A stretch of DNA of 64,000 bases. It comes from Psammoneis japonica. Lineage: Eukaryota. The position numbers and the translations under genes are program-made. Location of the stretch: the NCBI GenBank assembly GCA_008632985.1, contig QPGO01000096.1:62001-126000 (forward strand). The letters are read 5' to 3'. Positions 1 to 25,500 of the stretch are shown piece after piece (the stretch's first letter is position 1; the number at the start of each line of letters is the position of its first letter). Under the pieces are notes generated by a model that saw only the letters and a program-made list of their open reading frames with translations, was not told where the DNA came from and ran no database searches.

Positions 1-960
1 AACAATCCACCCGGCATTGGATGCTGGGCTTGGGCATGACTTTCTTGAGGGGAAGGTGTGAGCGATGCTGTGCATCATCACAGCAGCATGTTGGCCAGCC
101 ACCCTGCATGAGGCCAGCAATTGGGCGCCAGGACAGTCCACACCAAACAATGATGCCATCTGGAAGACAATGATGAAAATCACTGTCCAAGAGCAGCTTT
201 GCTCAAGGATGTTGCACAAGAGATGTTGCCAAACTGGATCCAGAGGGTGGCAACCAAGCAATCCTCACTGGCAATGTCAACAAGGAGTGTGTTTGCTCTG
301 AAGAAACCACCAAGGCATTTGAAGGAGCAGTGCAGCCAAAATTTTTTTGTCAGAGAGATGCAGCAAAGACACACTCCTTGCCATGTGAGCTGCAGGATCA
401 GAGCCCATCAATGAAGTGTGGCCACAAGAGGCATTGCCGTCAAACAAGGCAGCTTTCTCCCAATCATCAATGGAGTCAGAGGGTCAGAAAACTGTGCAGC
501 CTGCTGGATTGACATTTCTTGCCAGACTGCTTTTGGCACTCTGCCACCTGAAGTGGAAAGTGACCCAGCCCCGTGCACAAAACTCAACAATCTGAAAGTT
601 GTGGACAGATTGCCTTCAACAAGCTTCACAAGGAACGTGCACTGGAGCACAATCTCTCCACAGCATCAGGGACAAAAAACAAGTGTGACCTGTCCTCCAA
701 CCAAGCCACAGACCAACAAGTGGGAAGCACTCAACTGTTGTCAAGCAGACAGTGTGTGGAAAGCCATTGGCAAATCCAGAAAATTGTGAATGGGTGGAAG
801 GCCATGGTCTCCCAAACTCAAACATGCACCCAAGAGAATTGATCTGCATCTGCCTCTTGCCAGGAAGAAGCCAGCATCAGCTCCAGCAGAGCATGCACAT
901 TTTGTTGGGGTGGTTCTGGTGTGTTTGACTGTGCAAGGGGGGGTGGAGACAGTGACAATT
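1..960 (+). mobile_element. Decayed non-LTR retrotransposon, APE-endonuclease region (copy 1)
   Basis: Degenerate diatom-LINE motifs in order: G.G(R)WAW, AA(Y)(R)P read as AACWP at 83-97, GSEPI..WATRGI, WIDIS(Y)QTAFG..PP, KL...KVVDR and RKL(R)MGGRPWSP. Broken by frameshifts and stops. Confidence 0.7.
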
Positions 961-2749
961 TTTTTGCCACAGATGGATGGCTGGCTGCTGCAATTGTTCA
1001 CAAGCTGAATCATGCTGCAGCACTTCATCATTCTTTCATGTGCACGAGACTTCAAAGGTGCCAACAGAGACAGAGGCTCCCAAAATGACATTTGTGGCAA
1101 GCATCTGTCAGATGGTCTCACCCCATTGGGCATCATGTGCATCAACATGGGATGGCTCAGGAGCATGTCCAAAAGGTTGGAGATTGCCATGACCAGCTCA
1201 GCAATGTCAAATTCATCCATGATGCACATGTCAAACCCAAAATGCCACAAGCCCAATTGTCTTGTGTTGCAGCACAATTTGGAGTGTGCAAGACTGCAGA
1301 GACATCAAAAGAGACAGCCCCCCCAAGATGGCAGCATTTCCTGCAAGCATCTGTTGGATGGTCTCAGGTGAGCATGACATTGCCAAAACCAGCACACCAA
1401 CAACATGGGATGATCCAGTGTGTCCAAACAAAGGTGCAAGATTGCCATGACCAGTGGCGAGGCGGGCAACTCAAAATCCATTTGGTTGTCATGCCATTGT
1501 GCATCGTGTGTTGCGCCATTGTTTGTGATGGCATGTTTTTGTGGAGAGCATGAAAAAGAACCAACCAATGGTGGCATGTGTGCCTTCATGAACCAAGGAC
1601 AAGTGCCAGCCCAAAAACCAAAAACATGGTGAAGGCAGAGAGCACCTGCATTTTAGAAACCTTGATTGTGACAAGAGATGCGCCAAAGTGCTTGCCCCAT
1701 GTGGAGCCACCTGGTGTGAACCTTTGATTGATGAAACATGAGGTGGATGCACAGATGGCTGGTGTCAACAGGGCAACAGTTGGAGGAACAGGCCACTGCC
1801 ACTGACGCAGGAGATGGCTTTGAGGAGGAGAGAGCAGTTTTGGTGGGGTCTGTTTGACAAGCACTGTTGCTGACAGCCAACACATCTCCAGCAAAAGTGT
1901 TTGCATCATCATTCAGTGATGGGACAGAGTGATGGAATTGTGCTGCAGGCATGACTGATCAAGAGGAGCTGTGGGAGAAGCTGTTGCTGCAGAAGGAGAA
2001 AAGTGGGATGAAAGATTGTGACACAAAACACACCCAACACATGTTCAACATGGCCGTCAACTTGATTCATCTTGCAGCCCCTGCTCAATCCTGTCATGTG
2101 CATCAATTGACACACTTGATGCCAACTTAAAAGACAAGTTTGAGAACTCAGATTGGCAGCTCATTTGTTCTTCAGCTGAAGAAGCATTTGGCATCACACA
2201 GCCAGGTGATTCTTCACCTCAGAAAGAGGACAAACAGAGCTTGCATGGTGCCATCAGAGAAACAAACTCATGAAGTTCAAATCTTTTGTTTTGCAGCATG
2301 CATCCATGATGCTGGCCAACATGGTGAGCCTGTTCACTGGCCTCTGCTGGTGTGTGGCAGCACAGTGCTGTTCATGCTCACCTGGGAAGCATGATCCAAG
2401 GAGGACGTGGCTCTTTGACTTGGGCAAGTTCAGAGGAACAATGCCCAGAGCATCCATGCATGCAGCACTTGCCCCGATTGTCTGCCCCCCAATGGCAGTG
2501 CAGCCTGTTGCAATGACATCACTCATGGCAGATGTTGCATGACAGCCTGATTTGCATGGATGATCCATGATGTGTGCAGTGAAAGTTTTGATGCAATGCA
2601 AAATGCATCCAAAGGAGTTGAGATTTGACCAGATTCTGCATTTGCACAGCTCCATTTTTTCTGGAGCAAACTGGCTCACAATTTTCACAACAGCACTTTT
2701 GGAGTGCATCTGCACTTTCATTGTGTCTGTTGGGTGTGCAGGTCAGTTT

Positions 2750-4450
2750 TTTCTAAAGGGCATTGCAGTCAGCCACTTTAGAATTGTGAGACAGCTTGGG
2801 CAAACCCCCATGAAGGCTTTGTTGGCAGCGTTCTTCTGTGAGCACTCCACCATTTTTGCAGAACACTGAGACAGGAGAGTGCTTCCAATGGGAAACTTTT
2901 TGGCAGGGACAGCAACTGTTTTCTTGATGGTCAAATGAACAACATTGTCATGATTGGGATGCAAACTCACAATGGCTGACAGTGCCTTGCATGCCTTGGC
3001 AGCAATGTGTGCTTCCGAGTGTTCTGACATGGCAAACAAAAAGGAAATCAAAGCAGCTTCATCAAATTCTGCAGAGCAAAATGTTCCATTGTCAGCACTT
3101 GCCATCTTGCAATTGGCACCAAACAATGATGGCATGCCTTGAGTGCAATGAAGGTGTTGAGGATGGCACATTGCTTGGCTCAGCTGGCGCAGACTGGTTG
3201 ATGGGATGCCAGTGGGTGCAGAACTTGGGACAGCTGATGGGACTGTTGAAGGCACCACAAATGGTTGTGCAAATGGACTGTTTGAAAGAGCTTTGCTGGG
3301 TGCCAAACTTGGGTGACCCAAAAGGATGGGCTTGGCTCTCAACCTTTTTGAATGAAACAAAGCAAAACAGAGATTTCCATGGGTCTTTGTGACTTGTCTG
3401 ATTTGCAACCCATTGTTTGTTCTCTCACATGTTGTGCCCACTGCAAACAATGGATTCTAGAATGCATCTGTGAAAGCACCCTCCAATGCTCCAGCATGAG
3501 GACCAACATGGGCACTGATGCCTCAAGGTTGCTGACAGAGCAGTTGAAGGAAGAGTGGGAGTGCTTGGCAGAGCATGGAGCTGTGCTTGAGCCATGGCTG
3601 GTGAAGCACTGCACTGCCACTCAGAGTTGCACTGGGTGGCATCACTTGGTGCAGGAATGTGACTTGATGGTTGTGTCACTTGAGCTGGGAGGATTGGAGC
3701 CAGTGTTTGAGTCAGCAGGCAGGTGTGTCATTGGATTTAGCACAGGAGGAGAATTTGGCAATGGACTCAGGTCTTGAGCAGAAGAAGGCAATGAAGGTGA
3801 AGAAACCAGCCAGTCTGATTTAGAACGGGCAAAGGCATTGGGTCTGGTGCAAGATGTGACAATGGCAACAAGTGAGAAACAGCAGGCATCAACATGTGCA
3901 AAACTCTGCTTTCTCATGCTGCAGCAATTTTGAACATGTGCACATCAAGTTTGCAGACAATTGGCAGCAATGGAGCCAAACATGGACTAAAGTCTGGCAG
4001 TGCTGGACTGCCATTTGGAGTTGCACTCAACATGCCACCTTGGCAGCACAAGAGTGTGACTCGGTGGTTGTGCAGTGTGATGGTTGGTGGTTGTGGTGCT
4101 TGGAGCCAGACTTGCACTCAGTGACTGCCAAGGTGTTTGTTTTGGATGCTTCAGTGGCTTGTGGGGATGATGCTGGGGCAGGACCAGGCACAAGATTGGT
4201 GATCACCAGATTTGGCATGGCCAATGTCATCATTGGTGGAGTTGGTTTGGACATGGAATTTTGTGCACAGGATGCACCAGGACAAGGATTTGGCTGCAGA
4301 CTCAGACTCAAGTTGGCGGCAGTTGGTGGGAGGCAATGGAGGAGGAGCAGGTGTCCCAGCCCAATGTGGAGCAAGCAAAGGTGTTGGGCTTGATGTGAGT
4401 CTGAGCATGGGCAGCCCTGTGTGCATTTCAACCTTCAAAAATGACAATGA
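2750..4450 (-). pseudogene. Decayed Pro/Ser-rich host-like ORF (PSxxPS stalk typical of diatom secreted or cell-surface proteins); partial second copy at ~9380-10690
   Basis: Minus-strand translations PSTVPSAVPSSAPTGIPSTS, SSPSLPSSAQDLSPLPNSPP and PGPAPASSPQATEAS are spread over several frames. Confidence 0.4.
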
Positions 4451-4899
4451 ACAAGAAATGCACATCAGCCTTTTTTTCAAAACCTCATTCAAAACCTCAC
4501 TTTTTTATGCTGTCAAACTTGCAATGGGCTGCCACCGCTCAGAAACACATTGGGCATGTCACCAAATGCAGAACTGCAACTCAATGGTCATGTCATTTGA
4601 TTGGCGCATCACTCAGAGCAGGGCTTGCACTCAGTGCATTCTGCCTTGGTGATCTGTTGGATGAGGACACTGCTTGATGGGTTGTCTGCTCACACCATTG
4701 TTGCAAACAATGATTCCAGCTCTCCAAAATCCAAAATTTGTTTGGCAGAGCTAGAGATGAATAAAAAATGGCAAGAACCAGGCAAGCCCTGCTGCAATGT
4801 TTGCACCAATTGTGCAAGAATGGAACTCAATTTATTGTCATTTCCCCATTTTTACAAATTTGAACTGCTCTGCCCCAGACAAGCACCATCCAGCCAGCA

Positions 4900-5800
4900 A
4901 TTTGCCAAGAAACCTCCAAGGAAGTTAAGCCAACCATTCTGGAGAGTGCAAAGATGTCTCAAACAAACAAAATGTTTGGGCCATCCTTGATGCTCTTCCA
5001 GACAAGAAAGCAAGAGCCACAGCCATGAAAAAGCACCCAAATGGGTCCGTGGCTCTCTGTCCATCCTTCCATCATGAACAGCACAGAACCACCATCCAGC
5101 AAATAATTTTGCAATGCCCTTTGCATGCACCATGCTGCAAGCCACCCCACCACAGGAGTGTGATGGATGTGGGAGCAATTTTCCATGCAGCGCATGCACT
5201 GGAATGTAGGAAAGGTGGCTCAGTCATCTCTTGACATGACAAGGTGGTCCAATGCAAGTGGCTGGCTCTGACCTTTTCAACAAATCCACCAAGCCCTCTT
5301 CAGCACATCATGACAAAGCTTCAATCAACCCCAGTCACAACTCAAGGAGCTCAGTGGATGATGCCAAGAAGAGCAGGCAAGCCCAAGTCACTGAGAACCT
5401 CTGCAAGTCCAAAGACGGTGACAGAGGCAATGTTCTGGTGTGCATGGCTGTTTTTAAAGATTGACAGATGCTGCATTGTTTGGTGTTTAAGTTGTGGACA
5501 CAGATGCAAAATTGTGTGGCTTGAAGGATCCAGTCCCGGGAGCCCACAAAAAGGAGAAAGAGTGCAAGCACCTCAAACAAGGCATGCCTTGAACAACACC
5601 ATCTCACTTTGCCCTTTTGTGGCATGCTGCAATGGGCCCATCCAGTCAGATGAGTTGATGCCATCCCATGTGGGAACATGATGGTGCCAGCTCATCACTT
5701 CAAATCCATCAAATCAAATGCAGCCATCAACAAGCAGCTGCTGGATGGCAATGATGAGCATGAAAGCATTGCCAACAAGTCTGCCAAAACAACATTCAAG
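4900..5800 (+). mobile_element. Decayed CRE-like non-LTR retrotransposon 3' end (zinc knuckle plus restriction-like endonuclease), copy 1
   Basis: CDGCG..FS..HALECRKGGSVI.(R)HD (5160-5245), DRGNVLV (~5420), then KK..KHL..C..HF.PFVA across frameshifts. Confidence 0.7.
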
Positions 5801-6049
5801 TCAATGCCACGGTGCACCATGAGGTCTCTTGAACACACAAGCTCAAACATTTAACAGAAGAAGACAAGAAAGGAGGAGCAACTCAAGGAAGTGCACATCT
5901 GTGGAGCAACTCTTCTGTCCTCACCAACATGAAATCTGGTGAAAACTGCGGTGATCTGTGCACCACCAACAAACATGAGACAACATTGCACGGCCTTTCA
6001 AAACATCAATGGATTTGCCAACTTTGAAAAAGACCACATGAAGAAGGAG

Positions 6050-7260
6050 AGAGCATTTTCAGAGGAAGTGTTCAAGAAAAGAGCATCAATGTGATGTGTT
6101 TTGCATGAACAAAACTGGCTGGTTCTGGAGAGCCACACCACTTGAGACCAATGACCACTGGCTCAATTCTGTGGGTTCTGGGAACTGCCACCCAACACCT
6201 CTGCTGCCTGCAACATGCATGACAAGCACTCCAGGAGGCGCGGTGATCATCAGAGGTGTGCACAAATCATCTGTTGTCACTCGCACATGGGCATTTGCAC
6301 ACTCAGCACGCACATGCAATCATGGCTGCTGAGCAAGCTGGCCACCAAGTCATCTCCGAAGGCAACAGTCCATCTGGTCCAGGGTGCTGCTGAATGGACT
6401 TGGACGTGAGATTTCAAGGAAAGGTGTGAGAGCCGCACTGTGCATGGTGATGGCATGTTGACCCTCCTGCATGGGTGCAAGTTGGGCATGCCAGGGCAGT
6501 CCACATGCAATGCTGGTGCCATCTGCAAGATGAGAACAATGGTCATTGTCTGAGAGCAGCTTGGCTTGAGGACCTTGCACCAGATGTTGCAAGCTGGATC
6601 CAGGGTGACAACACAAAGAAATTCTTGCTGGCAATGTCAACAGGTGTGTTCACTCTTAAAAAAACAACACCAAGGCTTTTGAAGAGTGCAAGGAGCAGCA
6701 CAACCAAGAAATCTTTTGTTTGAGAGACATGGCAAAGACACACTCCCTGCCATGTGCTTTCCAGGATCAGAGCCATTCAAACTGTGGGCCACAAGAGGCA
6801 CTGCCTTGTGACAAGGTGGCTTCTTTTCCCCAGCTGTTGATGGAGAGTCAAAGGGTTGGACAACCACATGGCCTGCTGGATTGACATTTTTTTCTGGGCC
6901 ACTTTTGGCAAGTCTGCCACCTGAAATGGAATGTCGCCCAGCCCGATGCACAAAACTCAATTGTGATCCAAAAACCACATGGACAGATTTGACAAGCTTT
7001 GCAAGAGGAGCGCAATTGGAGCAGCCACAATCTCCCCACTGCAGCATGATCAACAAAAAACAAGCAACCCCTGTCCTCCAACCAAGCCACAGACCAATGA
7101 GTGGAGCGCCACCAACTCTCTTTGAGCAGAGGCAGTGATGTGTGGAGAGCCAGCTGCAAATGCAGGAAATTGTGATTGGCTGAAGGCCATGTTCTCATCC
7201 CAAACTCAAACATGCATCCAAGAGAATCAATCTGCTTCTCTCACTGGGAAGTTGGCATCA
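6050..7260 (+). mobile_element. Decayed non-LTR retrotransposon, APE-endonuclease region (copy 2)
   Basis: WTWT(R)FQGK, MA(Y)(R)P read as gca tgt tga ccc at 6453-6464, GSEP...WATRG, CWIDI, LPPE..RPAR.TKL.CDPK; aligns with 1-960. Confidence 0.7.
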
Positions 7261-10200
7261 GCTCCAGAGCACACACATTCTGTTGGGCTGAGAGGCTCTG
7301 GTGTGCATGACTGAACAAGGGGTGGAGGCAGCGATGCCATTTTTTTGCCACAGGTGGTGGATGGCTGGCTGCTGTGATTGCATGCAAGCCAAATCACTCC
7401 ACACTGCATTTTGCACATGCAAGACTCCAGAGGTGCCAACAGAGACAGGCCCCAAAAATGACATTCACACTGCAAGCATCTGTCAAAGGGTTCCACCCTG
7501 TTGGGCATGTGCATCAACATGGGGGATGGCCCAGCATGTCCAAAAGGTGTGAAGATTGCCATGACCAGCTTGGCAATGTGCAAATTGACTGGTTCTTGCC
7601 AGGTGTCCAAATTGGTGTCCATGATGTGCATGTCAAACCCAAAGTGCCATGAGCCAAGTGTTGCATTTGGCATGTGCAAGACTGCAGAGACTTCAACAGA
7701 GACAGCCCCCCAAGATGGCATTTGCTGCAAGCATCCATTGGATGGTCTCACCCCCACTCCCCCCCAAGCAGCCCAACATTGCCAAAACCAGTGTGTTGAT
7801 GCAATCATTGATGCATCAGAAGTGTTTGTTGTTGTTCAGTGATGTGACAGTGAATGGAGCTGTGCTGTGGACATGGCCAATCAAGAGGGGCTGCAGGAAG
7901 TTGTTGCTGCAGAAGGAGAAAAGTGGGACAAAACATGCTCAACATGATCACCAGCTTGGTTTGTCTCACAGCCTCTGCTCTCAACCCTGATGTGTGCATT
8001 GATCAACACGCTCATCAACACCACAACTTCAAAGACAAGTTCAAGAACTCTGATTGGTGAAAACTTTGTTCTTCAGCTGAAAAAGCATTCAGAATCATGA
8101 TGTGGCCAGGTGGCTCTTAACCTCAAAAAGAGAACAAACAGAGCTTGGTGCCATCAAAGAAACAAACTCACAATTTTCAAATCTTTTGTTTCTTTCCAGA
8201 GGGCGTTGCACCAGCCAGCTGCTTCACAATTGAGAGAGCTCAGACAAACCCCCATGGAGGCTTTTGGCAGAACACTTGAAGCTCCCTGACAACAAGCCAA
8301 CATGACAAATCCATGACAATGTGCAGGCAATCAGTGCTGAGCCAGTTCAGCACACATCAATGACAAGCCTTGGGGCATGCTCCAATGATGAATGCCCCAG
8401 TGTGGACCCACCCCCCATCTGAAAGAAAGAGAGTGAAGCAGCAGTGCAAAAACTGAAACGATGGCATCAAAGCACGTGGCAACATTGCAAGCACTGTGAC
8501 TGTCATTGCAGTCCACTGACACACACACAGAATGTCTTGTGAGCAGTCAAAGATTGCTTTCTTGTGATGTTGGTCTTTCCACTTCTGTTGAAAATTTTGC
8601 AAAGAGTGTTTCAAAAATTTGAAGCACATCAGCATCGAAAGTTGACAGAAATCAAGAGTGCCATCAAAAGATGGGGCTCAAGCTTTCACAAGCTTTTGGA
8701 GTGAAGTGTCACTCAAAACATGGAAAAGGGGGTGGAGTTGATGCACCCTCCCTTTTTGCAGCCTCCACCAATGTCTGAGAAAGAGGGTGTCTGCCAGAAG
8801 GAGCCTCCATCAATTCAAAAAAATTTTCCAGTGTCAGAAGCGAGATTCAAAAAGAAGATGAAATGCATTGCTCACACACACACACCAACAATGAAAGAAA
8901 GAAACTCAAATTTGCTCCCACACATGGCTGTTGCCAGCTTTGTCCAGCTGAGCCACTTGAGTTGTGTCACATCAGTGTTGATGCTTCCAGCACCTGGCAT
9001 GATCACCACATCATTGGCAGCAATCACACCTCCTCTCAATTGGAGCCCATGACACACTGCACACAACAATCCAGCAATGTGCCATCTCCTTCAGTGCCAA
9101 TGAGACCAATGGCCAGTGGCTTCCTTGTGACTCCAGTCTTTTTTGTGCTCCACTCATTGAGCAAGGGAAGAGCCTCTGGAGCATGCCATTGTGAAGAAAC
9201 AATTGATGGTTGGCCCCGCAAGGCTTCACCCACCAGGGAACTTCATTGACTGTTGAGGCTCCCTCCACCCCACAACATTGGCACTGATCTTGCCCCACTC
9301 ATGTGTGCTGACAGAGTGCTTCCCATGGCAACCTTGTTGTTGGTGGGGACAGCAGCTGTTTGCTTGGTGGTCAGATGAATGACATTGCCGTGATTGGCTG
9401 TGCAAACTCACAATGGCCAACAGTCAAGCAAAACAGAGCTTTCCTCCTTGGCCCCACAAAAGGGCTGCAAAAACAACATGAGTCTCTGACGGGAACATGG
9501 GTCTTCATGTCTCTGACCTGCAACCATCATTTGTTCTCTCACATGCTGCATGCACCCACTGCAAAAAAAAAATGAACTCTAGAACACAACTGTGAAAGCA
9601 GTCACCCACACTCCAACATGAGGACCAACATTGGCGCCAATGCCTCAAGTGGGTTGTTGCTGATGGAGCAGTTTGGGGAGGAGTGGCAGGGCTTCTTCTT
9701 GACAGAGCATGGAGCTGTGCTTGAGCCATGGCTGACAGGGACTGTGCTGCCACTCAGTGGGAGATGCACTGGGCAGCATCACTCAGCTCAGGAGTGTGAC
9801 TTGCTGGTGGTTGTGTTTTTTGAGTTGGGGCTCCTGGAGCCAGTGTTGGAGAGTTGGGTGTGTCGTTGGTGGAATCAGCACAGGAGGAGAGCTTGGGGCT
9901 GCAGCCAGTGCTGGAGAGTTGGGTGTGTCATTGGTGGATTCAGCACAGGAGGAGAGCTTGGCAATGCTGGGCTCAGGTCTTGAACAGGAGAAGGCAGTCA
10001 AGGCAGAGAAATTGGCCGGTCTGACTCAGAACAGGCCAAAGCATCAGGTCTGGTGCAGAATGCAATGATGGCAACAAGTGAGAAAAACAGGTGTCATCAT
10101 GTGGTGTGCAAAACTTCACTTTCTCATGCTGATGATTTTTGAATGCACACACAAAAAGTTTGCAGACAATTAGAAGCAATGGAGCTGAACACAGACTGGA

Positions 10201-11369
10201 GTCTGGCACTGGACTGCACCACTTGCAATCCTGCTGGATGTGTCACTCAGCACAAGACTGTGGCTCAGCACTGGTTGTGCAGTGTGAGTTGGTGCAGTGC
10301 GCTTGGAGCCAGACTCATGCTTGGTGGCTGCCAAGGTGCTTGCCTCAGATGCTTCAGTGGGGTGTGCAGATCATGATGTTGGGACAGGACGAGGCACAAG
10401 ATTGGTCATCAGATTTGGCATTGCCAGCATCATTCAACATTGACAGAGTGGGTTCCAGCATCAGATTTTGTGCAGGATGCAGGACAAGGACAAGGATTTG
10501 ACTGTGGACTTGGCTCAGACTTGGGTCAGTGGCATTGGGAGGTGATGGAGAAGGAGCAGGTGTGCCAGTCCAATTCAGAGGAGCAGGCAAATGTGCTGGG
10601 CTTGATGCAAGTCTTGGGGTGGGCAGTCCTGTGGGCATTTCAACAACCATTGAAAATGACAAGCAAGAAACACATGACAGCCTCTTCTTCAAAACCTTGC
10701 TTTTTTGTGCTCAGTCAACTCACTGCTGTGGAGCTGCACTTGAGCCACAGCTCGGCACTGGGCTGTTGCTCAGAAGTGCATTGGGCATGTCACTAGATGC
10801 ATCACAGCAACTCAGTGGTCATGTCATTTGAATTGGTGAGTCACTCAGAGCAGGCCTTGCACTTGGTTGCTGCCAAGGCATTGGTGTTGGAGTGCCAGAC
10901 TCTAAGCTGGGAGCAGCAGAGGTGGCACTCAGTGTTCTGCTTTTGTGGTCAGCCCAACCAGGGCTGCTTGATGGGTTGTCCTGCTCATGCCATTGTCAAC
11001 AGAACAATGGCAGCACCAGTTCTCTGAAAATTTAAAATTTGTTTGGCAAAGCTTGAGACAAATGAAAAATGGAAAGAGCCAGGTGACAGAACATGACGAC
11101 ACTGCCCACAAACCCTGCTGTGATGTTTGTGACAATTGCACAATGACAATGGAGAGCTCTGCTGATCTTGCAGCCATCACAATTTAAAAAGCAAGATTTG
11201 GGTGTTGACAATGTTGTCATTGACTCAACTTGTTGTCATTTCCCCATTTTGACAAATCTGAGCTGCTCTGCCCCAGACAACTGTGAATTGAGCACCCTCA
11301 TGAAAACTCATGCAATTGACTTACTGTGCAGTGCCGTGTGCTGCAGTTTGAGTTGGTGGTTCACCGAGA

Positions 11370-12330
11370 AACCTCCAAGGAAGTCAAGTCAACCATTCTG
11401 GAGTGCAAGAATGTCACAAACAAACAAAAACTTTGTGCCATCCTTCATGCTCTGCAGGACGAGAAAGCCAGAGCCACATGAAGCACGCAAATGGGCACAT
11501 GGATGTGTGTCCATCCTTCCATTGTGAGTGGCACAGAGCCATCCAGCCAAGGATTCCATGATGCCCCTCATGTGCACTGCGCTGCAACACCTCCCAACCT
11601 GCCACATGAGTGTGATGAATGTGGGTGCAAATTTTCCATGCAGCATGCACTGGAATGTGAGAAAGGTGGCCCAACCATCTGTTGACATGAAGAGGTCAGA
11701 GACAAGCCGCCTGGAGAGTGCAAAACAACCTTTTTGGCAAATCCACCAAGCCCTTCTCAGCATGTGACAAACCTTTGGTCAACCTTGGTCACAACTGAAA
11801 GAGCTCAACAGATGATGCCAAAAAGCACAAGCAAGTCAGGGTCTCCAAGAACCTCCACAAGTCAAAAGAATGTGACAGAGGCAATGTTCTGGTGCGCGGC
11901 TGACACGGGCGCGCAAAATCACATCACCCAAGAGATCCAGAGAAAGTCCTCTGGAAGCCCACAAAAAGAAGAAAAAGTGCAAGCATCTCAAGGCATGCCT
12001 TGGACAATGCCACCACTTCACCCTTTTGTGGCATCCTGCAACAGACCAGTTGGAGAAGAGGCAAAGGCTGTTTTGCAGATGGCAACAGCCGCCAAGTTCT
12101 TGGAGAAATGGGGCAAAACAAGCCTTGTCTTCTGAGGTGCGTTGCTTCATCAGCACTCAAATGAGTGCTGCTGTCATGCTCACTGCTCACCTCTGCCTCC
12201 AAGGATTTCAAATTTTCAATGCTGTCCCATGTGTTGGGAAGGTGCCAGCTTGTCACTTCAAAACCATCAAATGTCATCAAATGCCCCCTCCCCATCACCA
12301 AGCAACTGCTGGACGTTGATGACATGAGTG
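11370..12330 (+). mobile_element. Decayed CRE-like non-LTR retrotransposon 3' end (zinc knuckle plus RLE), copy 2
   Basis: LPHECDECGCKFSMQHALECEKGG..I.(R)HEEVRD, DRGNVLVRG, PFVASCN.PVGEEAKAVLQ...KFLEKWGK and FIS.QMSAAV..TAHLCLQG, matching the RLE C-terminus (R.RMS.A.VR..HLCLRGSR). Confidence 0.8.
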
Positions 12331-13185
12331 TGTGTGCATCGCCAACAAGTCTGCCAAAACAACACTCAAATCATTGCCACAGCACACAAAGCACACAACA
12401 ACAACTGCCTTTTCTGCCTCAGGCAGCACAGCCCCAAGACCTGCACAAAATGCTGCCAACTCTGTCTGTGCTCTTCCTTGTGGCTGTCGTGTGCACACAA
12501 CATGCAAATTGGTTCCCTCAGTCTGTTCCTTTTTTGAGTGTGGCCAGTTGCCACTTTTTTTTTGCTTGAGTGCAGCTGAATGGCATGTGTTTTGCGTGAC
12601 TTTTCCCGAACTTCATTCACTGCGGTGCATGCTTCGCTGTGGTGAAAACAGCAAACCATGAGCAGTCTGTGACACAGGGGTGGTCCACATCCACCAACAC
12701 TCTCATTCATTTTATGTTCCTTGTGCATCAAAGCTCTTACATGCATGAAAAGTTTGTAGACGACAAGCTGCGTTTTTGAGAGAAATGTGCTTCGATCGCG
12801 GTGCCTGATGTTCTCGTTTTCGTGAGCGATCGGCGATCGGCGATCGGTTGTCGGTTGACTTTTTACTCCTGTTATTCAAATCCACAGTAATTTTAGGATG
12901 AACGCGGGGATGACCTCCCATAAATAGTTTTGATGTCCTACGACGAAATGCGTCCAATCTACAGGTTCTACGTAGCAACCGGAAAGTGCCTGGCCACCGT
13001 CCGGCATTTTCGCTCTCTTATGGCGCGCGCATAGTGGCAATCCTGAAATCTTTTTTTCTTTGCTCGTCCGCGATAGTTGTTCGTTGTTCATGCACTGTTG
13101 CAAACGAAAAGATCCTGTGCCGTCGGCTAACACAGTGCTTCACCGCGTCCATTCTAACAAGGAGAACCCTACAAACCAGCTAAGT

Positions 13186-14064
13186 ATGCCATTCACTCTG
13201 ATCCATAACACTGACAACTCGTTGCAAGAGCAGCTTGAGAGCCATGGTGCGGAGCTAGCGGCTCATCAGTACCGGTTGATGTCCTGGCGTTCAAGCATTG
13301 GTGGAGGACCCGACGACTGGCCATCCACTGAGGAGGAACTCAAAGCGGCGAACTTTGGAGCAGATGCCGGGAAGGAGCTGTCTGCCCTCAAGGAAATGGC
13401 TCAACTTACGGCAGTCGAGAAGCAGCTTATGGACTCCAATATTTCTGCCGGTCTCAAGGTTTTGGCGTCCCGCTTTCGCCACAATCTCGGCATTCCTGAG
13501 CTGCCCAACGACATTTATGAAAAGGCGATAGCATCGATCCCCGAAGAACTTAGCGGACCATACGGTTTTGAAGAGTTGGATTTGGAGTATTGGCTCGATT
13601 ATTACCCCGTCTTGGACAAGTACACCGCGACAGCAATCCTCAAGGAATCCGACACGGACCTTTTCCCAAACTTTTACATGTTTGCGGTTGGGGCACACTT
13701 TGTCTCACAGTCGTGGTCTGATGCAGAACTCAAGAAGTGGTACACGTATGAAGGATTTCTTTCCACCCATCGTCCCGTTTGGCCCACCAACAACAAATCG
13801 GACAAGTTGGCTCCTACGAAACGTGCGAAACTCATTGCGCGCTTGACCTTGGACGTGGTCGACTATTCTCAGGGGAACTGTGCGCACTACGGGCATTTGA
13901 AGCGCACGGCTGAACTCATCAAGAATTTGTCCCTACAAGACCTCAACGAGCAAGCCGAACAAGCTGGAATCAACATCTTGGATCGCGACGACAAGGCCGC
14001 TTTGGTTGTAGCTCTTGTGGAACACATCTACAGTGATGTCATCGAGCCGGCGGTGACTGCCTAA
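13186..14064 (+). CDS. Single-exon hypothetical protein (292 aa)
   Basis: Open frame from ATG 13186 (MPFTLIHNT...) to TAA, with normal CpG/TpA content and globular-protein composition. No domain recognised. Confidence 0.7.
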   Translation: MPFTLIHNTDNSLQEQLESHGAELAAHQYRLMSWRSSIGGGPDDWPSTEEELKAANFGADAGKELSALKEMAQLTAVEKQLMDSNISAGLKVLASRFRHNLGIPELPNDIYEKAIASIPEELSGPYGFEELDLEYWLDYYPVLDKYTATAILKESDTDLFPNFYMFAVGAHFVSQSWSDAELKKWYTYEGFLSTHRPVWPTNNKSDKLAPTKRAKLIARLTLDVVDYSQGNCAHYGHLKRTAELIKNLSLQDLNEQAEQAGINILDRDDKAALVVALVEHIYSDVIEPAVTA

Positions 14065-14629
14065 AAGAGATCTGGACTCTTTTTATGCCGCATGATAGAA
14101 ACCATAGAATACATTTACTACCTGTAATCTGATTTGGGCGGATCTATAAACGTGTATTTTATTCAGGCAGAAACAAATGCTAGGAGAAAACCCCGCCGTT
14201 ATCCTTCTGCGTGCCTTGGCCGCGAGACAACAGGTCCAACGAAATGCTACGATTTTGACTTACTATGCTAAGAATCGTGAACCTTGTGCATCGAAGGCAT
14301 TTGAGATCCAAGGAATTTGTGCATGTCGAGAACAACTGCCAGAGTGGCAAAGGTGACATTGGAACACATGCGTGAGTCTGCAACTGACAACAACGAGAGT
14401 CGTCATCGCTCGGCGCTGCATCTTTCTAAAGTCTGTCGCTTGACTCACGACCGACTACCTTTCTGTTTTTCGACATTTCAAACGAATGCAACAGGAGCGA
14501 AGTTTGGTTCATACTCACTTCTCAATGCCGCTGGCGCTTGCGGGTCCACCAATGACAGAAACTACAGTACGTACTTCTTACTGTACTTTACATGCCAAAC
14601 GAGCCTCTGAAGGAATCATCTGAAATCTC

Positions 14630-14745
14630 TCTACGCTAGCTAGCTAGAGTAGACTCTCTACTCTAGCTAGAGTAGAGAGTAGCTACTACTCTACTCTAGC
14701 TAGCTGTCTAGTAGAGCTAGCTCTACAGTAGAGAGTATAGTATGA
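14630..14745. repeat. Low-complexity TAG/CTA/AGAG tract upstream of the helicase gene
   Basis: ctctctacgctagctagctagagtagactctctactctagctagagtagagagtagctactact... Confidence 0.8.
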
Positions 14746-14881
14746 TAGAGTCCTCACTTGGGTCCTCATACTCTCAGAGTAGAGGGACCGGCGCGATTGA
14801 TGGTAGCGCGGCAAAGGAAGATGGGCCGCCCATCGCCATCGCGCCATCGCCCATCAGAGCAACAAGAAAACACAATGAGCC

Positions 14882-17800
14882 ATGAAGGCCGTCGCGACAA
14901 AGAGGAGCCGTCCCCAGAGCCAAGGCTCTTCCGCGACGGGGCCTTCTCGGTCGCTTGCTGCTGTCTCTTCCCCTCCTACGACTGTGGAATTATGCGGTGT
15001 TCCGGTTCACTTCCCGTTCAAGCCTTATAAATGTCAAGAATCGTACATGGCGATGGTGCTTCAGGCTTTGCATAGAAAGGAAAACGCGCTCTTAGAATCA
15101 CCGACTGGGACTGGCAAGACGTTATGTTTGCTTTGCGCTACTTTAGCGTGGCAGAGGGAACAAGCGAGACTCCTTCCAGAGCAAAACGGGGCTCAAGAAC
15201 CTCTCCTGAATCCTGCAAATGCTTCTGCTACCGGTATTTCTCCCAAAGCTGCAAAAGTGCCTACGATTATTTATGCGTCCAGAACTCACTCCCAACTGTC
15301 TCAAGTGGTTCGTGAACTACGTAATACACGATATCGTCCCAAGCATGCAGTTCTAGGGTCACGTGACCAAATGTGTGTCCACCCCAAGGTGAAAACAGCT
15401 ACATCTACGGCTGCCGATGTGAATTTCGAGTGTGCCAAACTGGCCAAAGAACGAACTTGTAGGTATAGAAATCGTGTTGAAGGCTTTGTTCCACCCACCA
15501 ACGATGGCTCTTGTGCTAATCCTGAAACAACACAGCCCGTTATGGATATGGAAGATCTAGTTGCAATGGGGAAAGAGCATAAGGTGTGTCCGTTTTACCA
15601 CACAAGAGCTCAGGTGTCGGATGCAGAACTGATTCTAGTGCCATACAATTACTTGTTTGAAAAGGACGCACGACAAGGAACTCTCGCCGAAGTTCAATGG
15701 GACTCTTCTGTTGTTATTTTCGACGAAGCGCATAATCTCGAGTCCTTTGCCTCTGAATCGGCGTCCTTTGATATTACCGCTGTTGACATTGCCGGGTGTA
15801 TTGGAGAAGTCAACCGCGCCATGTCCTACGTTCAAGCTCATTCAGAACTCGCTGACCGTGTCCGTCCCGACAACTTATCCAAGCTCAAAGCCATGTTTCT
15901 GGGTTTGGAAGAATACATCATTCGGCAGGTTCCTACCACTCAATCGGCATTCGCCGGCGAGTACATTTTCGAGATATTTAACAAGGCTTGTGCCATTACC
16001 CATGCCAACCACCATTTCTTTCTACTAGAAGTGCAGAAGATCTCCGATATGATTATGGACATGAGCAGTGGTAGTAAAAGTAGAGGAACACCCAAGCTGG
16101 ATCATTTCTCGGGCTGTATCAAACGAGTCTTTGGGGAATCGACTCATGGTAGATGTTTGGCCAAGGCACGAGCTTATCGAGTTCACGTCACGCCGAGTCA
16201 AGCAAATAACAAGAATTCCATCCGAACCTTGTCGTATTGGTGTTTTGCGCCATCCTTGGCCATGCAGGAATTGGCTGATTTGGGAATTGGATCCATTCTC
16301 GTCACTTCAGGGACACTCTCGCCTTTGCCGAGCTACAGTTTAGAGTTGGGTCTGAACTTTCCCCACCAATTGGAGAATCCTCACATCATTCAAGATCACC
16401 AAGTCCATGTCCGAGTTATCGGAAAGGGCGTGAGTGGAAAACTCTTGACAAGCACTTACGAACGACGGGAGACTCTGAGTATGTTCTGGAATTGGGAAAT
16501 TCACTCGTAAGCCTTGCTCGCATCATTCCTGGAGGCATGCTTATTTTCTTTCCCAGCTATGGCGTCATGGAGAACTGTATAGGGCAGTGGGGTGGACCCA
16601 CGTCCTCGTACAAAGCCTCCAGGAATAAGGCTACCTTCTTTGCCAATCGACGAAAGCCATCCAATCAGAATCGATTCTCCTTTCCTCATGCTCCCAATTA
16701 CTACGCGTCTCATTCTAACGAACCACAAACTCCATGGAAACGACTCATGGCTCAAAAGGCCATTGTTGTTGAACCAAAGACAACGTCAGATCTCAGTGAG
16801 GCCATTAGTGAGTTTCACAAGTATTTGAACAAACCCAAGTCGAGCGGGTGTGTTCTCATGGGAGTCTGTCGAGGAAAAATCAGTGAGGGTATCGACTTTA
16901 CTGATGACATGTGTCGAGCCGTTGTTATCACTGGCTTGCCTTTCGCTCCATATTTAGACCCAAAGGTTAAACTCAAGCGAGAGTACCTGGACGGTGTCAA
17001 GGCGGAAAAAGGGATTCGTGCATCAGCTGATGGAGGGTTCGGCGCTAATTCGACTACCGACAACCCCAATACTTTCATATCAGGAGCAGAATGGTACTCT
17101 CAGCAAGCCCAGTAAGAAGTAGACCATTCAACTGACGTTTCTCAAAGCGAGTGCGCTCATCTGACACCCTTTCTGACATACTTTCACTTCCAACAGTCGA
17201 GCGGTCAACCAAGCGATCGGTCGAGTCATTCGAAACAAGTCGGATTACGGTGCTGTTCTCTTGTTAGATTCACGGTTTGGTGAACCACGAAATCAGATTG
17301 GTCTTAGCAAGTGGTTGAGACCACATATTCAAAGAGATGAAGGGTTTGGACGAGCCATTGGTGGCTTGGCGTCCTTCTACAAAAAGGCCAAGCGAGTTGA
17401 GACTGAGCTGAAGGCCCACCCCGTTCAGCCAATTGCGAATTCTGGAGGCGTTGTTCTAGAATACGAAGAAGAAGCCGCAGACACGTCAATGACCAACATC
17501 GCAATTATTCGATCTGTAGATGAAACAAATTCCGAAGCGGAGCAGGACCCTATGAGAAATGCTACTGGCAAGAATGAGAGTGACAATGGGTCTCTTTTTC
17601 GAGGCTACATACAACCGGGAAAAGTTCTTGCCCGATTCGACCTCAAGGACAAGGAAAACAAGGTACTTGGTCAACCTGGAGTCCAATGCGCTGATTCAAC
17701 CGCATCGGGTCCTGCCCCTTCCTCTCTGAAGGACGTGTACAACTCGTCTTCTAGCTCCGCTACAGGACGTCATGCGCAAAATAGAACCGACGGCAGAAAC

Positions 17801-19516: not shown

Positions 19517-22500
19517 TTACTTCTTCTTTGAGCGGAACTTGCTTCGCAACCCACCGAAGCTCCTCATCGAACGAGAACTGCGGACACTCCCGACTTCACC
19601 TCCTGGAGTCGGCTTGGGAAGTCTACTACTAGCAGGCTTGGAGCGACCTGCCGACTGAACACCGTTCAACTGGTTTTCGTCATTTGTGCTGTCGCTGTGA
19701 CCACCTGAACTTGACGACTTGATGTTTAAAGCTGCGTCTCGCGGCGGACGAGAACTAGTACCATGGCGGAAGGAATCCCTCTCCTCAGAAAGCTTCTCCT
19801 CAAACGAAGGCTTATTCTCAATCTCCAACTTCCCACCAGTGAACAAAGGGTGTTCCAAGACTTCCCTCATCGACTGGACGCGTTGGTCAGGGTCATGATG
19901 CAAGAGTTTCCTCAACAAGTGACGGGCCACCTCATTCTCCTGGGGTACATGTTTGAGCGCCTTCCTCAGGCTGCTATCATCCCAAAGACCGACCTTACTA
20001 ACTTCCGAAGAACTCATGGCTCGCTTGCCTCGGCATGCATACGGGGAGAGTGGGAGACCAGCAATAGCCTCGTATACAACGACCCCATATGCCCAAATAT
20101 CGTACGTTGTGTGGGACGAGATCGAGACTACGCAGGCGGAGACATTCTTCTTACCAATCGCAGCGCGCTTGTTGTCAACTACGATAGCTTCTGGCGGGTG
20201 GTAAAATCCACGATTTGGATCTGTCGGTTCTCCAATCCTGACACTCCCACCGACTCCCAGCAACTTCCATCGGCTTCCAAACTTGCCAATATTGTGAGTT
20301 CCAAAGTCACCATGAATAAGTCCGTGCTCGTGCATGTGCAGCAGCGAAATACCAATCCTCTTTAGCGCCTTCTCGGGGAACTTTTTTCCGGACTTGCGAG
20401 TGTCCAGCATGAGATTCTCGGCGGTTGTATCGGCGCCTTCCATCGTGATGCAGTATCCAGGCTCCGCCATAGCCTCCGAGTACGCAGCATGCTGCACTGT
20501 GTGGTGGACACTAATAATGGCTGGCACATAGTGCCTCGACAGGTGGTAATCTTTTCGGACTTTCAGTTCACGTTCAACGACATCAGACCTTGAAGTCAAC
20601 TTCGCAATAACTTGTTGCCCCTTCTCTTTGCGAATTCGGCGCAGCTTGTCCTCGATACTCTGTTGGGACTTAGTGCTAAGCGTAGATCTCATGCTATTCC
20701 GAGATACCGCAGAGACCTGAGACGAATCGTCCCAATCTTCCACATAGTCATTGTCCCCGCCGTCGACTTTGTCATCGTGGAGCACCGTAAAGCCACTGCC
20801 TTGCTGCTTGGGTGGTTCGTAGCGCAGCGCATAAAAGATCTGCGTATCGCTCACTGGATTCGTGTACGCCGGTCGTTGATTCACGACTTCCAAAGTATTG
20901 AACAGACGGAGCATGACACGAAGCTCATGTTTGCAAACAGGCGAGGCGGCCGTAAGAGCAATCCTACCATCGGGACCCTCGACGTGCGCAAGGGCAAGCA
21001 CCTGGGGCTGCGTACAAGTTTGCAGGATTTTCGTTACAACCTGGTGATAGAGGTCGTCGGTGTTCGAGACAATGTGGTTCCACGAATAGTGGTGAGGGAG
21101 GAGCTGGGCCCGAACCTTTTCTTTAAGGTCGATCGGCATGTCACGCTTCAACAAATTGTGAACAATAAAGTGAGAATGCTCATTCTCAGTAGCGACCTGA
21201 ATGGGAAGCAAGCCAGTCTTCCGATCAACGGAAGTTGCAAGCTGTAGAAGGGGAACAAAGAGGCGGCTAGTGAGAATACGAAGAAGGAAACTCGATTTAC
21301 ATAGGCGACCGTTCCAACACGTACCTCTGGTGCATGATTGAGCAAGCCCATAATCGTCCTGTCGTCTGCATTGTGCTGGAACGCCAAAAAGAGCGGGCTG
21401 TGACCGTCTCCGTTTAGAACTCCAGCACCCTCTGGGAACTGCATGATAATCGTGTTGATCACTGCCGATCTGCATTGATTCTTGATTGAAATGTGCAGAG
21501 GCAGGTCTCCATTCATATCGGTTCGCGACACCGCCGAAGAAAAGCAAGTCAACAACGTCTTGACCACAACCTGATCAACGACTTCGCCACAACGAAGAAG
21601 TAGGTGTAGCGGAAGATCGCCGTTTTCGTCGGTCCTCTTGGCCGACGCAAAGTTCTCCGCAAGAAGAGCCGTGATGACACCGATAGAAGCATAATTGCGA
21701 CAAGCAATGTGAAGAGGAAGGCCTCCACCTGAGTTATTGGGAGGACGATACACCATCGTATAAGCACCTTCAGGAGACTTGGAGAGCAAGAACTTAACCG
21801 TATCTACGGCGTCAAACTCAGCGGCAACATGAATAGGAAGGCGTCCCTTTTTATCGGTGTCGTTGATTCCCTCCTTGTAGGCACTGTAGATAATCTCCAA
21901 GGCTGCCAAGTTGTCGTGGGCCGAAGCATGGTGGATGGGAAGAGCGCCCATATTATCTCTGTGGATAAGAGCTTTTGGATACAAAACGAGCACCATGTCG
22001 ATTAGAAGAGTCCAAGCCCCGTTGTGTCGCGCAATCATATGAAGCGGTAGTTCTCCGCTCTTGGGTTCAGGGGCCTCTGATAGCTCTGGATGCTTGTCCA
22101 GCACACTCTCAACCATCGCCCAGTTCTCCTCTTGAATGTGATGAAATAGCTCCTGTTGCATATCAGAAGAAACGGCAAGGGCGTCCGTAGGAGTAGGAGG
22201 GGGCAACGAAGGCGTGATTTCGCGCTGAATCGGTTCGGGCGATTGGAACATTACAACCGGCGATCTGACTTTCTGTTTGACTTCCTCTTCTTCCACGGCC
22301 TTAAGCAAAGCCTCACGTGTCCGACCACCCCGATAGATCGCTTGCATTGCAGTCACTGCCATCACAATATCTTGTTCTGTCATTGTGTTGGATTCTTGCG
22401 CAATGAGCTGCATTCTGTGGTTTCTGTAGGAGCGCTGGATCTTAGTTGCAGCATTCGAACGCGTACTGACAATGCTATCCACAGACTTTCGCGCGGAATG

Positions 22501-25500
22501 CCCTCTCCATAATTTCTGCACCGTAGTCGCGGCACCATCCGTTCTCATCCGGCTCGCCCGCATGGCGGAAAGCTTCATGCGGAGGATACTTTGAATCATA
22601 ATAGCTGCTCCCTTCATCGTGAGGAAGTACGTGCGAACAATCTTGCCTCGAACAATCTTCTGAATCGCACTCGCAGCAAAGAAGAATTTGTCAGACCTCA
22701 GCGCCTCGATTCTGTCAAACGCTTCACGTCGGAGAAACACCTTTGTGCGTCCTAGCTGTAGACCAGCGACCGCACAACGGGAAGCAAAGTCCAGGGACAT
22801 AAATTCCTCTTCGGAGGTAGGACGAGCGACATTGCGCCCCTCTGTTTTACCTCCTCTCGAAGTTCTGCCGTTGCTGTCCCTTTTCTTTCGTTGCTTATCT
22901 TCTGGCGTCTTTACTGAACTTTCGACAACCAAGGAAAAGGCAGGACCTCGTGGACCTGTCATTTGCTTCGTTTGCTGATCGGATTGCCGCTGTTTGAAGC
23001 GATAACGGAATGAAAATGTCAGCGACACGAATCGATTCAACCTTTAATTCGAATATTCAATAGTAACTTACATGAGCATATTTCGGAGACGACAAGAGAG
23101 TTTCTCTACGCTTCTCCTCCATCTCCAGAAGCGCAACAATGTGCTGATGGTCGGCTTCCCACAAATCAAATGCAATTTTCGAAATGAGACGCTTGAGCTC
23201 GGACACTTGTTCGGTGTTGGACCGAGGCGAAAACATGGGAGACACAGGGCTAGTATCTTCAAAGTCACCAAGGATGTAGTATCGAGCCATAAACACATCG
23301 TGGGCGTATCGTGTTGGGTAGCCTGCACGACTTACACGGACAGCTTCCAGTACACCTCCACAACGAAGCTGTTCGACAATGTTTTTGGGTTCAAAGTAGT
23401 CCGGAACTAACTCATCGTTCGGTTTGAGGCAGCGAATGTAGTGGGGTACGGTAGTGTCAATCCTCGCACGAAGCGTACGCAACTGCTCGGAGAATTGGGC
23501 ACCAACAGACTTGGTGGCAATTGTGCCGCGTCCCTCGCGATCTTCAGATCGGACATACTTTTGAATGTCCGAGATGAGGTGAAAGTCCGAAGACGTCAAC
23601 AGGTCAGCGGAGGCAGCAGGAAGCTGGTCCTTGTTCTTTTCGAGCCATGAATCCGTCGTGTACTCTACGTAACCGGCGTAGTGTTCAATGCTAAACTTGT
23701 AGTCCACGCGTTGCGACGAAGTTGCGTGAAATCTAGGATGAGAATCGCACCGACCGTAAATGTACCGAGTGAATTTCTGATCCGTACTCTTTGGAAGGAT
23801 ACATTGCTCATCAAGGAGAGCGAGAATACCCCTGTGCTTCTTGTCAATCAAATCAAGGACGTCCTGGTTGTCGGGGAACGAAATGAACTTCCACAGGATT
23901 CCCTCCTTCTCGTATTCCACTTGTTCAATCTTGAAGACAAACTTGTTGAACTGCTGCTGCAGAGCTTCGTTCGTGTAGTTAATACAGAGCTGCTCATAGT
24001 TATTTATGTCAAAGGTTTCAAAACCAAAAATATCAAGCACACCGATGGATGCTTCAGAACGCATGGACGGGTCCTCCTCGATACTATCGTTCACTCGTTC
24101 GACAATATAGTCAAACGCCGCGCCATAGACGGCCTTGATCAGGGCCTCGCATGCCTTGGTCGATTCGTCAATATGAAGCGGCTTATGCACAATCTCATTT
24201 CCAGCCAGAATAACTCGGGTGGTTAGAGAGGCAGCGAGCCCCTCAACGCTCACACCCAAGAGCGCCGCAGTCTTCAAAGCAGCTTCTGTCTCATCCAAGG
24301 TGCAGGACTCTCCATCCTTAGAGGCGGTGAACGTAATGTTACCAGCAAAGAGGACAGCCATGACAAGGCGCATAAGAGCCTGAACGGTTTCTGGTGAAAA
24401 GCCAATCGTAATCTGAACAAGTAAGAGAGTTTTAGAAAAACAAATTAGTCGAGAAACAAATGAAGAAAAGAAAAAACGCGACGACAAAATCCACTCACCA
24501 TTGCGTCAAGCATTTCTTGATGCGTCACTTCATCGCTCACACCGTCGCGGCGATCATACGTCCCACTCTGATTAAGCAATTTGAAATCTTCGAAGTGAAG
24601 GTTGTCAATGTAGAATTGCTCCCTCTCCGCCTTGGTAGCGCTGGAGAGAAACTGATAAAAGACGTGGTAGTTCCGTTCTCCTGCTGCTTGATGGATGAGT
24701 CGAACCTTTTCCAATAGATAAGTTTCAATTGAAGCGCCAGACAGCTTTCCAGACCTTGTGAAGCTAATGTCAATATATTTTCCAAAGCGGGAAGAGTTGT
24801 CGTTGCGGATCGTCCTTGCATTTCCAAAGGATTCAAGAATCGGGTTGCTCTGCAAAACTTCCTGTTCGATACTGACGTCTTCGACAGCCCCCTTGGGAGA
24901 CTTACGGGGCGAACTGCTTTGCATTTCAGCTCGCTTGCGTGAAAGCATGGCAAAGTAGTTCATGACAATCTTGGTCGTGACCGTCTTTCCCGCGCCACTC
25001 TCCCCAGAAACCAAAATACTCTGATTGGTCGGATTGTCTAGGAGGGCAACTCGACCCTTGCCTCTTGATACCTGACGTGACTGTCCCATCAGTGCAGAGT
25101 TCTCAAGTCCCCTTGTCATTGCACGGTATGCATCATCGGCAGTCTGGTATACGTGTGGTGGAAGCCTTTGATGAGACACATCTCTTCTACTGGGACGACG
25201 CTTAAAAGGCGTAACCATCCCGTCGACCCCTTTCTCGGTGTTTGCTCCGACCCCCTTCTCCCCCTGAATTCTATAGCGATCCATCATTTCAGACGAATAG
25301 AGACCCATTGGTTTGAACGGGTTGACCGCAATCAGGATGGGACCTGTGGCTGTGTAGATAATATCCGCATCGTACCTGAGTCGCAGGGCGTGCAGAATAG
25401 CAGGTTCGTGTAAATGCGTTAGCCCAATCAAATCGTCGACTCCTCCAACCACTGATTCGTCTACTTTGTTGGAAGGACTCGCAATAACTCCCGCTTCTGG

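Follow-up and report, generated by a model that had tools for sequence, protein, structure and literature searches.

The DNA considered here is a single 64-kb stretch (hereafter the window) of contig QPGO01000096.1 from the diatom Psammoneis japonica, and all our results apply to this window. Its long open reading frames (ORFs) belong to ordinary eukaryotic genes, namely a myosin with IQ, ankyrin and kinase parts, an RTEL1-type helicase and a HAD hydrolase; the best relatives of the myosin motor are diatom proteins, with identities of up to 81%. Between the genes lie five blocks, amounting to 26104 nt altogether, in which the dinucleotides TA and CG are almost absent. These blocks, which we term islands, and the process by which TpA and CpG were lost from them are the principal subject of this work. 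A preliminary description of the beginning of the window had proposed that this part contains two relics of the endonuclease of long interspersed nuclear elements (LINEs), and had taken the altered form of a conserved motif in these relics as a sign that TpA was lost by mutation, instead of being scarce from the outset. The islands are as follows:

Island 1, 1-12650: two tandem units of ~6.37 kb; 28 TA and 79 CG in 12650 nt; TG and CA at 1.93 and 1.86 times their expected counts
Island 2, 28500-34100: internal tandem duplication (30581-31383 and 31752-32512); 18 TA and 43 CG in 5601 nt
Island 3, 45500-48200: 5 TA and 34 CG in 2701 nt
Island 4, 52900-55800: 0 TA and 47 CG in 2901 nt; loss of CG partial
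Island 5, 60750-63000: 3 TA and 19 CG in 2251 nt

Composition and borders of the islands

Taken together, the islands contain 54 TA and 222 CG alongside 2913 TG and 3119 CA, as against 1451 TA, 2308 CG, 2640 TG and 2682 CA in the remaining 37896 nt of the window. The four pyrimidine-purine steps add up to practically the same fraction in both partitions (24.2% in the islands and 24.0% in the rest), TG and CA having gained what TA and CG lost. The GC content is also nearly equal (0.484 versus 0.486), which fits a combined loss of TA, which raises it, and of CG, which lowers it. When expressed as ratios of observed to expected counts (o/e), the values for the individual islands range from 0.00 to 0.05 for TA, from 0.11 to 0.27 for CG and from 1.67 to 2.07 for TG and CA; outside the islands the TA o/e is 0.58. 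The composition of island 1 is far beyond chance in this respect, with a TA o/e of 0.03 and a CG o/e of 0.09-0.11 across positions 1-12000, compared with 0.54-0.63 and 0.86-1.12, respectively, in fully normal 4-kb windows. The borders of the islands, including that of island 1 near 12700, are sharp to within 100-200 nt.

In all five islands the TA o/e is lower than the CG o/e. At 52900-54000, in the first part of island 4, TA has already reached zero and CG stands at about half its normal density (15 per 500 nt), and it looks as if the loss of TpA were ahead of that of CpG here. This island starts ~300 nt upstream of a minus-strand ORF (51672-52580), so that the converted zone nears a gene without entering it. 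The ORF itself terminates in GGPGFGS...DQRGTGR, a signature which we take to be typical of prolyl aminopeptidase-type alpha/beta hydrolases.

Fourier analysis detected no 3-base periodicity in the islands, where the signal was 0.2-3.8 with one window at 5.6; the larger ORFs of the window peak at 5-13 (29 in a repeat described further below). A Pfam search with the 105 ORFs of at least 70 amino acids from the islands other than island 1 returned noise only (E 0.0075-0.09), an Rfam search gave 0 matches, Tandem Repeats Finder reported nothing bearing on the finding, and a word-indexed search with the minus-strand ORF 2746-3456 found no match. Two further minus-strand ORFs, 744-1304 and 7230-7835, were considered as genes and rejected, their 48% amino acid identity at ~75% DNA identity being that of neutral decay. 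As this DNA has lost TAA and TAG, we regard them as ORFs that arose by chance.

Tandem copies in island 1 diverged by independent transitions

Self-BLAST and MAFFT alignments reveal that positions 1-12400 are made up of two tandem copies, A and B, of one ~6.37-kb unit, which are 72-77% identical and colinear over at least 5.8 kb. The identity is 71.7% between 6395-7750 and 25-1366, 73.4% between 9922-10863 and 3722-4631, and 74.9% between 11364-11902 and 4905-5450. The copies differ by 23 insertions or deletions (indels) per kb, and 66 of the 97 indels are not multiples of 3. Each copy in addition has a private segment:

25-5817: copy A
6395-12387: copy B
2292-2746: segment present in A and absent from B; 0 TA, 2 CG; parts of it are also found at other places in the genome, and there is extra contig depth over 2137-3738
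8271-9312: segment present in B and absent from A (position A 2828-2876); 0 TA, 5 CG; a later insertion, holding a stretch homologous to a sequence outside the islands (N, see below)

The insertion in B is flanked by segments that pair with A on either side (A 2747-2828 with B 8190-8270, and A 2876-2983 with B 9313-9424), and extra contig depth at 8011-9078 overlaps it.

Over the 3782 aligned columns, the two copies differ by 594 transitions and 262 transversions. Their 372 double differences are dominated by one class, CA in one copy opposite TG in the other, which accounts for 144 of them, with the next classes numbering 11, 11, 10 and 9. The internal duplicates of island 2 show this class in 17 of 38 double differences, as against 1 of 4, 0 of 5 and 6 of 47 in repeats of normal composition. 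Once transitions are ignored, the identity of the copies rises from 72-75% to 85-88%. This excess of CA/TG discordance implies that each copy resolved an ancestral TA or CG on its own after the duplication. A test for strand clustering, such as a processive deaminase would leave, found none: 72 of 143 neighbouring discordant sites agree in direction, versus 71.7 in shuffled data. The absence of clustering and the nearly equal numbers of TG and CA indicate single-site events that used both strands equally. This pattern resembles the decay of a symmetric mark, and not the runs expected from a processive deaminase acting on a single strand.

An unmutated paralog gives the direction of change

The polarity of the change can be read from a pair of homologous sequences, one outside the islands and the other within the private insertion of copy B:

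44300-44627, plus strand: N, a paralog of normal composition outside the islands, showing TA and CG at sites that are TG or CA in the island copy
8416-8732, plus strand: the island copy of this dispersed sequence, aligned to N with a score of 311-342, against 112-161 for 15 null scores

In ordinary BLAST the pair surfaces as a weak hit (164 nt, 68%), and its extent of ~320 nt was recovered by recoding the sequences as purines and pyrimidines. When every island was compared with every normal region in a search that tolerates transitions, this pair alone rose above the null. None of the 19 TA of N is kept in the island copy, 8 of them corresponding to TG and 7 to CA, and only one of the 15 CG is kept, 6 corresponding to TG and 7 to CA. 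The other 14 dinucleotides of N are kept in 153 of 257 instances (Fisher 9e-8 for TA and 5e-5 for CG), and merely 9 of 225 dinucleotides of N that are not pyrimidine-purine steps stand opposite TG or CA. Both types of mutation can be verified side by side where N has ACGTACGTACGG and the island copy ACACACACACAG, and again where N has GGTACG and the island copy AGTGCA. The change ran from N to the island copy, given that N has the composition typical of the genome and that both TG and CA arise from one and the same dinucleotide of N. Furthermore, the segments B 8271-9312 and A 2292-2746 are private to their copies and yet have 0 TA, which implies that DNA landing in the island was converted after its arrival, with N outside being spared.

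Another, minor example of relatives that escaped mutation is found at 3192-3313, which is matched by several high-depth contigs from two runs, X1 and X2; at 3280 and 3283, where the window reads TG, there is TA in one of these contigs and CG in two. The surrounding segment, 3100-3330 on the plus strand, reads LVDG MPVG AELG TADG TVEG TTNG CANG in frame 2, with a four-residue xxxG rhythm.

Contigs of run X1 represent island and genes alike at a depth of 53-60 with ~0.4% differences from the window (46 differing letters in 11260 nt of island and 12 in 3080 nt of neighbouring genes), in records of up to 315 kb. The 40 differences listed, out of 203, include 6 adjacent CA/TG pairs, 6 exchanges of CG with TG or CA, and 2 changes from TA to TG or CA. 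Differences of these types are to be expected if ordinary transitions keep making TA or CG, which are then quickly resolved either way, and they suggest that the process was still at work while alleles or strains diverged. Run X2 lacks cover over most of island 1 and covers 12283-16000; we conclude nothing from it.

The proposition that TpA was removed by mutation, and was not rare in the original sequence, is thus borne out by the polarity between N and its island copy, the discordance of the duplicated copies and the differences from X1, and not by the motif from which it had first been argued. The best explanation, which we hold to be very probable, is that the islands are non-coding DNA in which transitions, occurring site by site, have turned nearly every TpA and CpG into TpG or CpA.

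Endonuclease-like strings in island 1

The other proposition of the preliminary description was that two relics of a LINE endonuclease of the apurinic type (APE) lie in island 1, and that the strings ACWP and AC*P in them descend from A-Y-R-P by TA>TG and CG>TG in adjacent codons. The canonical motifs of these endonucleases are QET, GGVAI, YRPP, GDFN, RIDY and SDH. The strings that recall them are:

62-570, plus strand: endonuclease-like strings in copy A, AACWP, ILTGNVN, WIDIS and SDPAP
86-97, plus strand: motif site in copy A, GCA TGT TGG CCA = A C W P
6138-6950, plus strand: endonuclease-like strings in copy B, PLET...GGAVII...SIWSRV...VMAC*P in frame 3 of 6138-6482, ILAGNVN and WIDI in other frames
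6453-6464, plus strand: motif site in copy B, GCA TGT TGA CCC = A C * P, at the same position as 86-97

There are features that favour such an origin. Motif-like strings stand in the order canonical for APE-type LINEs over ~800 nt, on the plus strand and in both copies, as judged against the consensus motifs. Frame 3 of copy B has 2 stops in the 115 codons of 6138-6482. The pattern G[DN][FLVIM]N occurs at only two sites in 51780 island codons, which are precisely ILTGNVN and ILAGNVN, and an ordered combination of four motifs is present once, at 86/270/505/559, and was absent from all of 200 Markov simulations, with the caveat that patterns and spacings were chosen after the sequence had been seen. 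The replacement of tyrosine by cysteine and of arginine by tryptophan or a stop would also be the expected fate of these codons under the demonstrated process.

The searches, in contrast, were uniformly negative. Pfam, run on all six frames of 1-12000 with stops as X, gave 0 families at E<=1, with no reverse transcriptase (RVT) family among them, and five short pieces gave 0 families at E<=10. Of two phmmer searches of the PDB, one had 0 hits and the other 5 noise hits (NOS, HDAC). A word-indexed search with 6093-6482 read through its stops found no match, and the stop-free ORF 6042-6329 had no usable hit in the ESM Atlas. The ORF 177-509, compared by phmmer with 1.84 billion representatives, drew a lone PAN-repeat protein, a match driven by cysteines that we rejected as spurious. 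Regular expressions for reverse transcriptase motifs (KAFD, RQG, YADD-type) found none at the expected distance on either strand downstream. The resemblance to endonuclease motifs is accordingly not significant in any search. The silence of Pfam and other profiles is weak evidence, in view of the frame-breaking indels and of a simulation in which a real gene of the window was left to decay and retained 57-68% amino acid identity. The region also differs from APE-type LINEs in showing no sign of dispersed copies: 1-2136 and 6409-8010 are at single-copy contig depth at a likeness of at least 80%, a threshold that older copies would escape. The absence of 3-base periodicity is a further point on this side.

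The motif sites themselves have to be seen in the light of the duplication. The two strings do exist at equivalent positions, as the preliminary description stated; this equivalence comes from a hand alignment of copies A and B, MAFFT placing a 7-base gap just upstream. The view that they represent two LINE relics fares differently: they are not independent insertions, being products of the tandem duplication of a 6.4-kb block, and the searches just described did not support their identity as LINEs. As A and B are tandem copies, 86-97 and 6453-6464 are one ancestral site copied once, and their agreement is not independent evidence regarding the ancestor of a family. Moreover, both copies read TGT TG at this site, with no CA/TG discordance, and hence the TGs carry no internal mark of derivation from TA or CG; TGT TG(G/A) is the product expected of TAT CGR and equally of an original TG. 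In the polarised comparison with N, 8 of 29 TGs in the island copy go back to TA, 6 to CG and 8 to TG itself. By our own estimate it would therefore be very improbable, motif argument set aside, for two adjacent TGs to derive one from TA and the other from CG. A related suggestion, that WIDISCQTAFG in frame 1 of copy A (505-537) points to an ancestral tyrosine codon TAC, found no support, since copy B reads WIDIFFW, with TTC opposite the TGC of A.

On balance, a LINE endonuclease origin of 62-570 and 6138-6950 is possible and unproven, and we lean against it; the specific derivation of ACWP and AC*P from A-Y-R-P is likewise unlikely, although it survives better than any of the other alternatives discussed below.

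Other features of the window

Several features outside the islands merit a brief account. On the minus strand, 19517-25842 is one long gene read in four overlapping ORFs. Its product combines a myosin motor with IQ motifs, ankyrin repeats and, at the C-terminus, a protein kinase; diatom transcriptomes commonly contain full-length relatives with the identical domain make-up, ~2000 amino acids in size. On the plus strand, 34396-42306 is a single ORF of 2636 amino acids, in which ankyrin repeats near its end are the sole recognised feature. It has a strong 3-base periodicity and internal repeats at ~37400-40400. The ORF 56137-57771, which has no Pfam family, contains at 56652-57572 (plus strand) a 249-nt tandem repeat of 1.8 copies with 93% matches, and this is the source of the strongest period-3 signal in the window (29). 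Directly upstream of the helicase gene, at 14627-14733, lies a short TA-rich palindromic repeat with units of the CTAGCTAG type. Contig depth rises about 3-fold over it, with many loose ends, which makes it either a dispersed element or a repeat common to promoter regions.

Alternative explanations

Several points weigh against the explanation we prefer, that of site-by-site transitions at TpA and CpG: 1) Polarity rests on a single paralog of normal composition, of ~320 nt, and two sequences by themselves do not formally root the change. 2) The differences from X1, of which 40 of 203 are listed, could be alleles or assembly differences. 3) X1 is perhaps the source data of the assembly, in which case it may not be independent. 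4) With no protein domain in any island and no periodicity, a foreign or transposable-element origin of the islands is not shown. The unit of island 1 may nonetheless descend from a transposable element. 5) The base marks that would underlie the process are putative.

After the LINE origin, the alternative that survives best, while being distinctly improbable, is a defence triggered by homology and resembling the repeat-induced point mutation (RIP) of fungi, for example one based on the diatom DNMT4, which would mutate duplicated DNA and of which the islands would be the products. Islands 1 and 2 do contain tandem duplications, parts of island 1 have further copies in the genome, and the DNMT4 that diatoms encode is a relative of fungal RID (PMC9998398). 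The islands also resemble the work of RIP in Neurospora and other fungi in that transition hypermutation destroys DNA outside genes, with blocks of biased dinucleotide composition as the outcome. However, N outside the island is unmutated and its partner in the island fully converted, whereas RIP depends on duplication and affects every copy. Single-copy depth prevails over most of island 1, and for islands 3-5 the window contains no partner. The borders follow position, not the ends of repeats: conversion extends alike over the A/B unit, the two private insertions and the flanking DNA. The signature is moreover the opposite of that of fungal RIP, which changes CpA to TpA and so raises TpA, while the islands lose it. 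RIP of the fungal type as such we exclude, because it would have raised TpA and struck all copies, neither of which is seen here.

An artefact, in which modified CpG or TpA of silent chromatin would be miscalled as TG or CA by sequencing or polishing, appears very remote. Some long-read basecallers do make transition-like errors at modified bases, and several differences between the window and X1 fall at CG, TG or CA sites. Yet the k-mer contigs of X1 reproduce the island, with a rate of differences equal to that of the genes (46/11260 versus 12/3080), and a depth of 53-60 in exact 31-letter words suggests that the reads are accurate; nor would miscalls yield 144 stable CA/TG discordances between tandem copies. 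Scarcely credible, and the weakest of all, is the notion that the islands were always poor in TA and CG by original composition or selection, such as in a foreign element with that signature: UpA and CpG avoidance is known in some viruses and TA is under-represented outside the islands too (o/e 0.58), but this is contradicted by the polarity of N and its island copy, the CA/TG discordance, the conversion of later insertions and the unchanged total of pyrimidine-purine steps, and the islands display no sign of function (no ORF domain, RNA family or periodicity).

Possible mechanism and comparison with known systems

Under the preferred explanation, namely transitions at TpA and CpG within the islands, the two losses probably have separate causes. 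TpA appears to be lost faster than CpG, because TA is more completely removed in every island (island 4 having 0 TA and 47 CG) and because TA should arise from TG and CA, through ordinary G>A and C>T mutation, at least as fast as CG arises. The loss of CpG could be due to deamination of 5-methylcytosine in methylated silent DNA, the simplest account given that diatom transposons are methylated; the same source describes the RID-related DNMT4 of diatoms as being of unknown function (PMC9998398). Like the 5-methylcytosine decay of methylated transposons, the events in the islands turn CpG into TpG or CpA, on both strands, site by site, and are limited to putatively silenced DNA. Unlike that decay, which spares TpA, they have removed TpA at least as completely as CpG.

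For TpA, a second and faster process might operate, of the kind described in Bigelowiella natans. In mutation-accumulation lines of this chlorarachniophyte, integrated viral DNA undergoes TpA>TpG/CpA changes at ~6e-7 per site per generation, and the authors propose an ADAT2-like adenine deaminase as the agent; their preprint mentions neither diatoms nor CpG (Mettrop et al., 10.64898/2026.01.13.699255). The two cases share TpA>TpG and TpA>CpA transitions confined to particular genomic regions. They differ in the host, which is a diatom here, and in extent, the TA o/e being 0.03 in our case against a Rho of 0.45 in the B. natans region derived from a nucleocytoplasmic large DNA virus (NCLDV). 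They differ also in that CpG is erased from the same blocks here and that no viral or transposable-element domain was recognised in them. The rate in B. natans was measured, whereas the signs in Psammoneis are indirect (the 6 CA/TG doubles and 2 TA>TG/CA among the 40 differences listed). The loss of TpA might proceed by deamination of adenine at TpA, or, if T or A is modified at this palindromic step, by mispairing of the modified base, and the process would be aimed at a chromatin domain and not at repeats as such. One candidate for the putative mark is thymine or adenine in a modified form that is kept on both strands in the manner of CpG methylation; alternatively, a DNA adenine deaminase specific for TpA may be at work.

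Significance

Judging by the papers that they listed, our literature searches found no work that describes RIP-like decay or hypermutation of TpA in a diatom, and the B. natans preprint is the only precedent found for loss of TpA and the closest known case. What is new here is a TpA-directed hypermutation in a diatom that is near complete, coupled with erasure of CpG, and tied to position, not to repetition. More tentatively, and with the odds rather against so broad a statement, we suggest that diatoms possess an active system, targeted to chromatin domains, that marks TpA in silent DNA and erases it faster than methylation erases CpG. This would be a second and hitherto unrecognised system combining an epigenetic mark with decay, of a breadth spanning the stramenopile-alveolate-rhizarian (SAR) assemblage (diatom and chlorarachniophyte), and DNA landing in its domains would be destroyed within the coalescence time of alleles.

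If the pattern holds genome-wide, it would have several consequences: 1) The escape of diatom repeats from annotation, and the presence of 'unknown' intergenic blocks, would be explained. 2) Homology searches on such DNA would need transition-blind methods, as illustrated by the weakness of the pair of N and its island copy in ordinary BLAST. 3) The signature in composition (no TA, no CG, and TG and CA doubled) would map silent chromatin from sequence alone. 4) There would be a testable biochemical target, in the form of a modification or deaminase acting at TpA. 5) Diatoms, which are major marine primary producers, would run a dinucleotide-specific mutational defence of the genome, of a kind measured so far in only one chlorarachniophyte, in a 2026 preprint, and joined here with the decay of CpG and carried near to completion.

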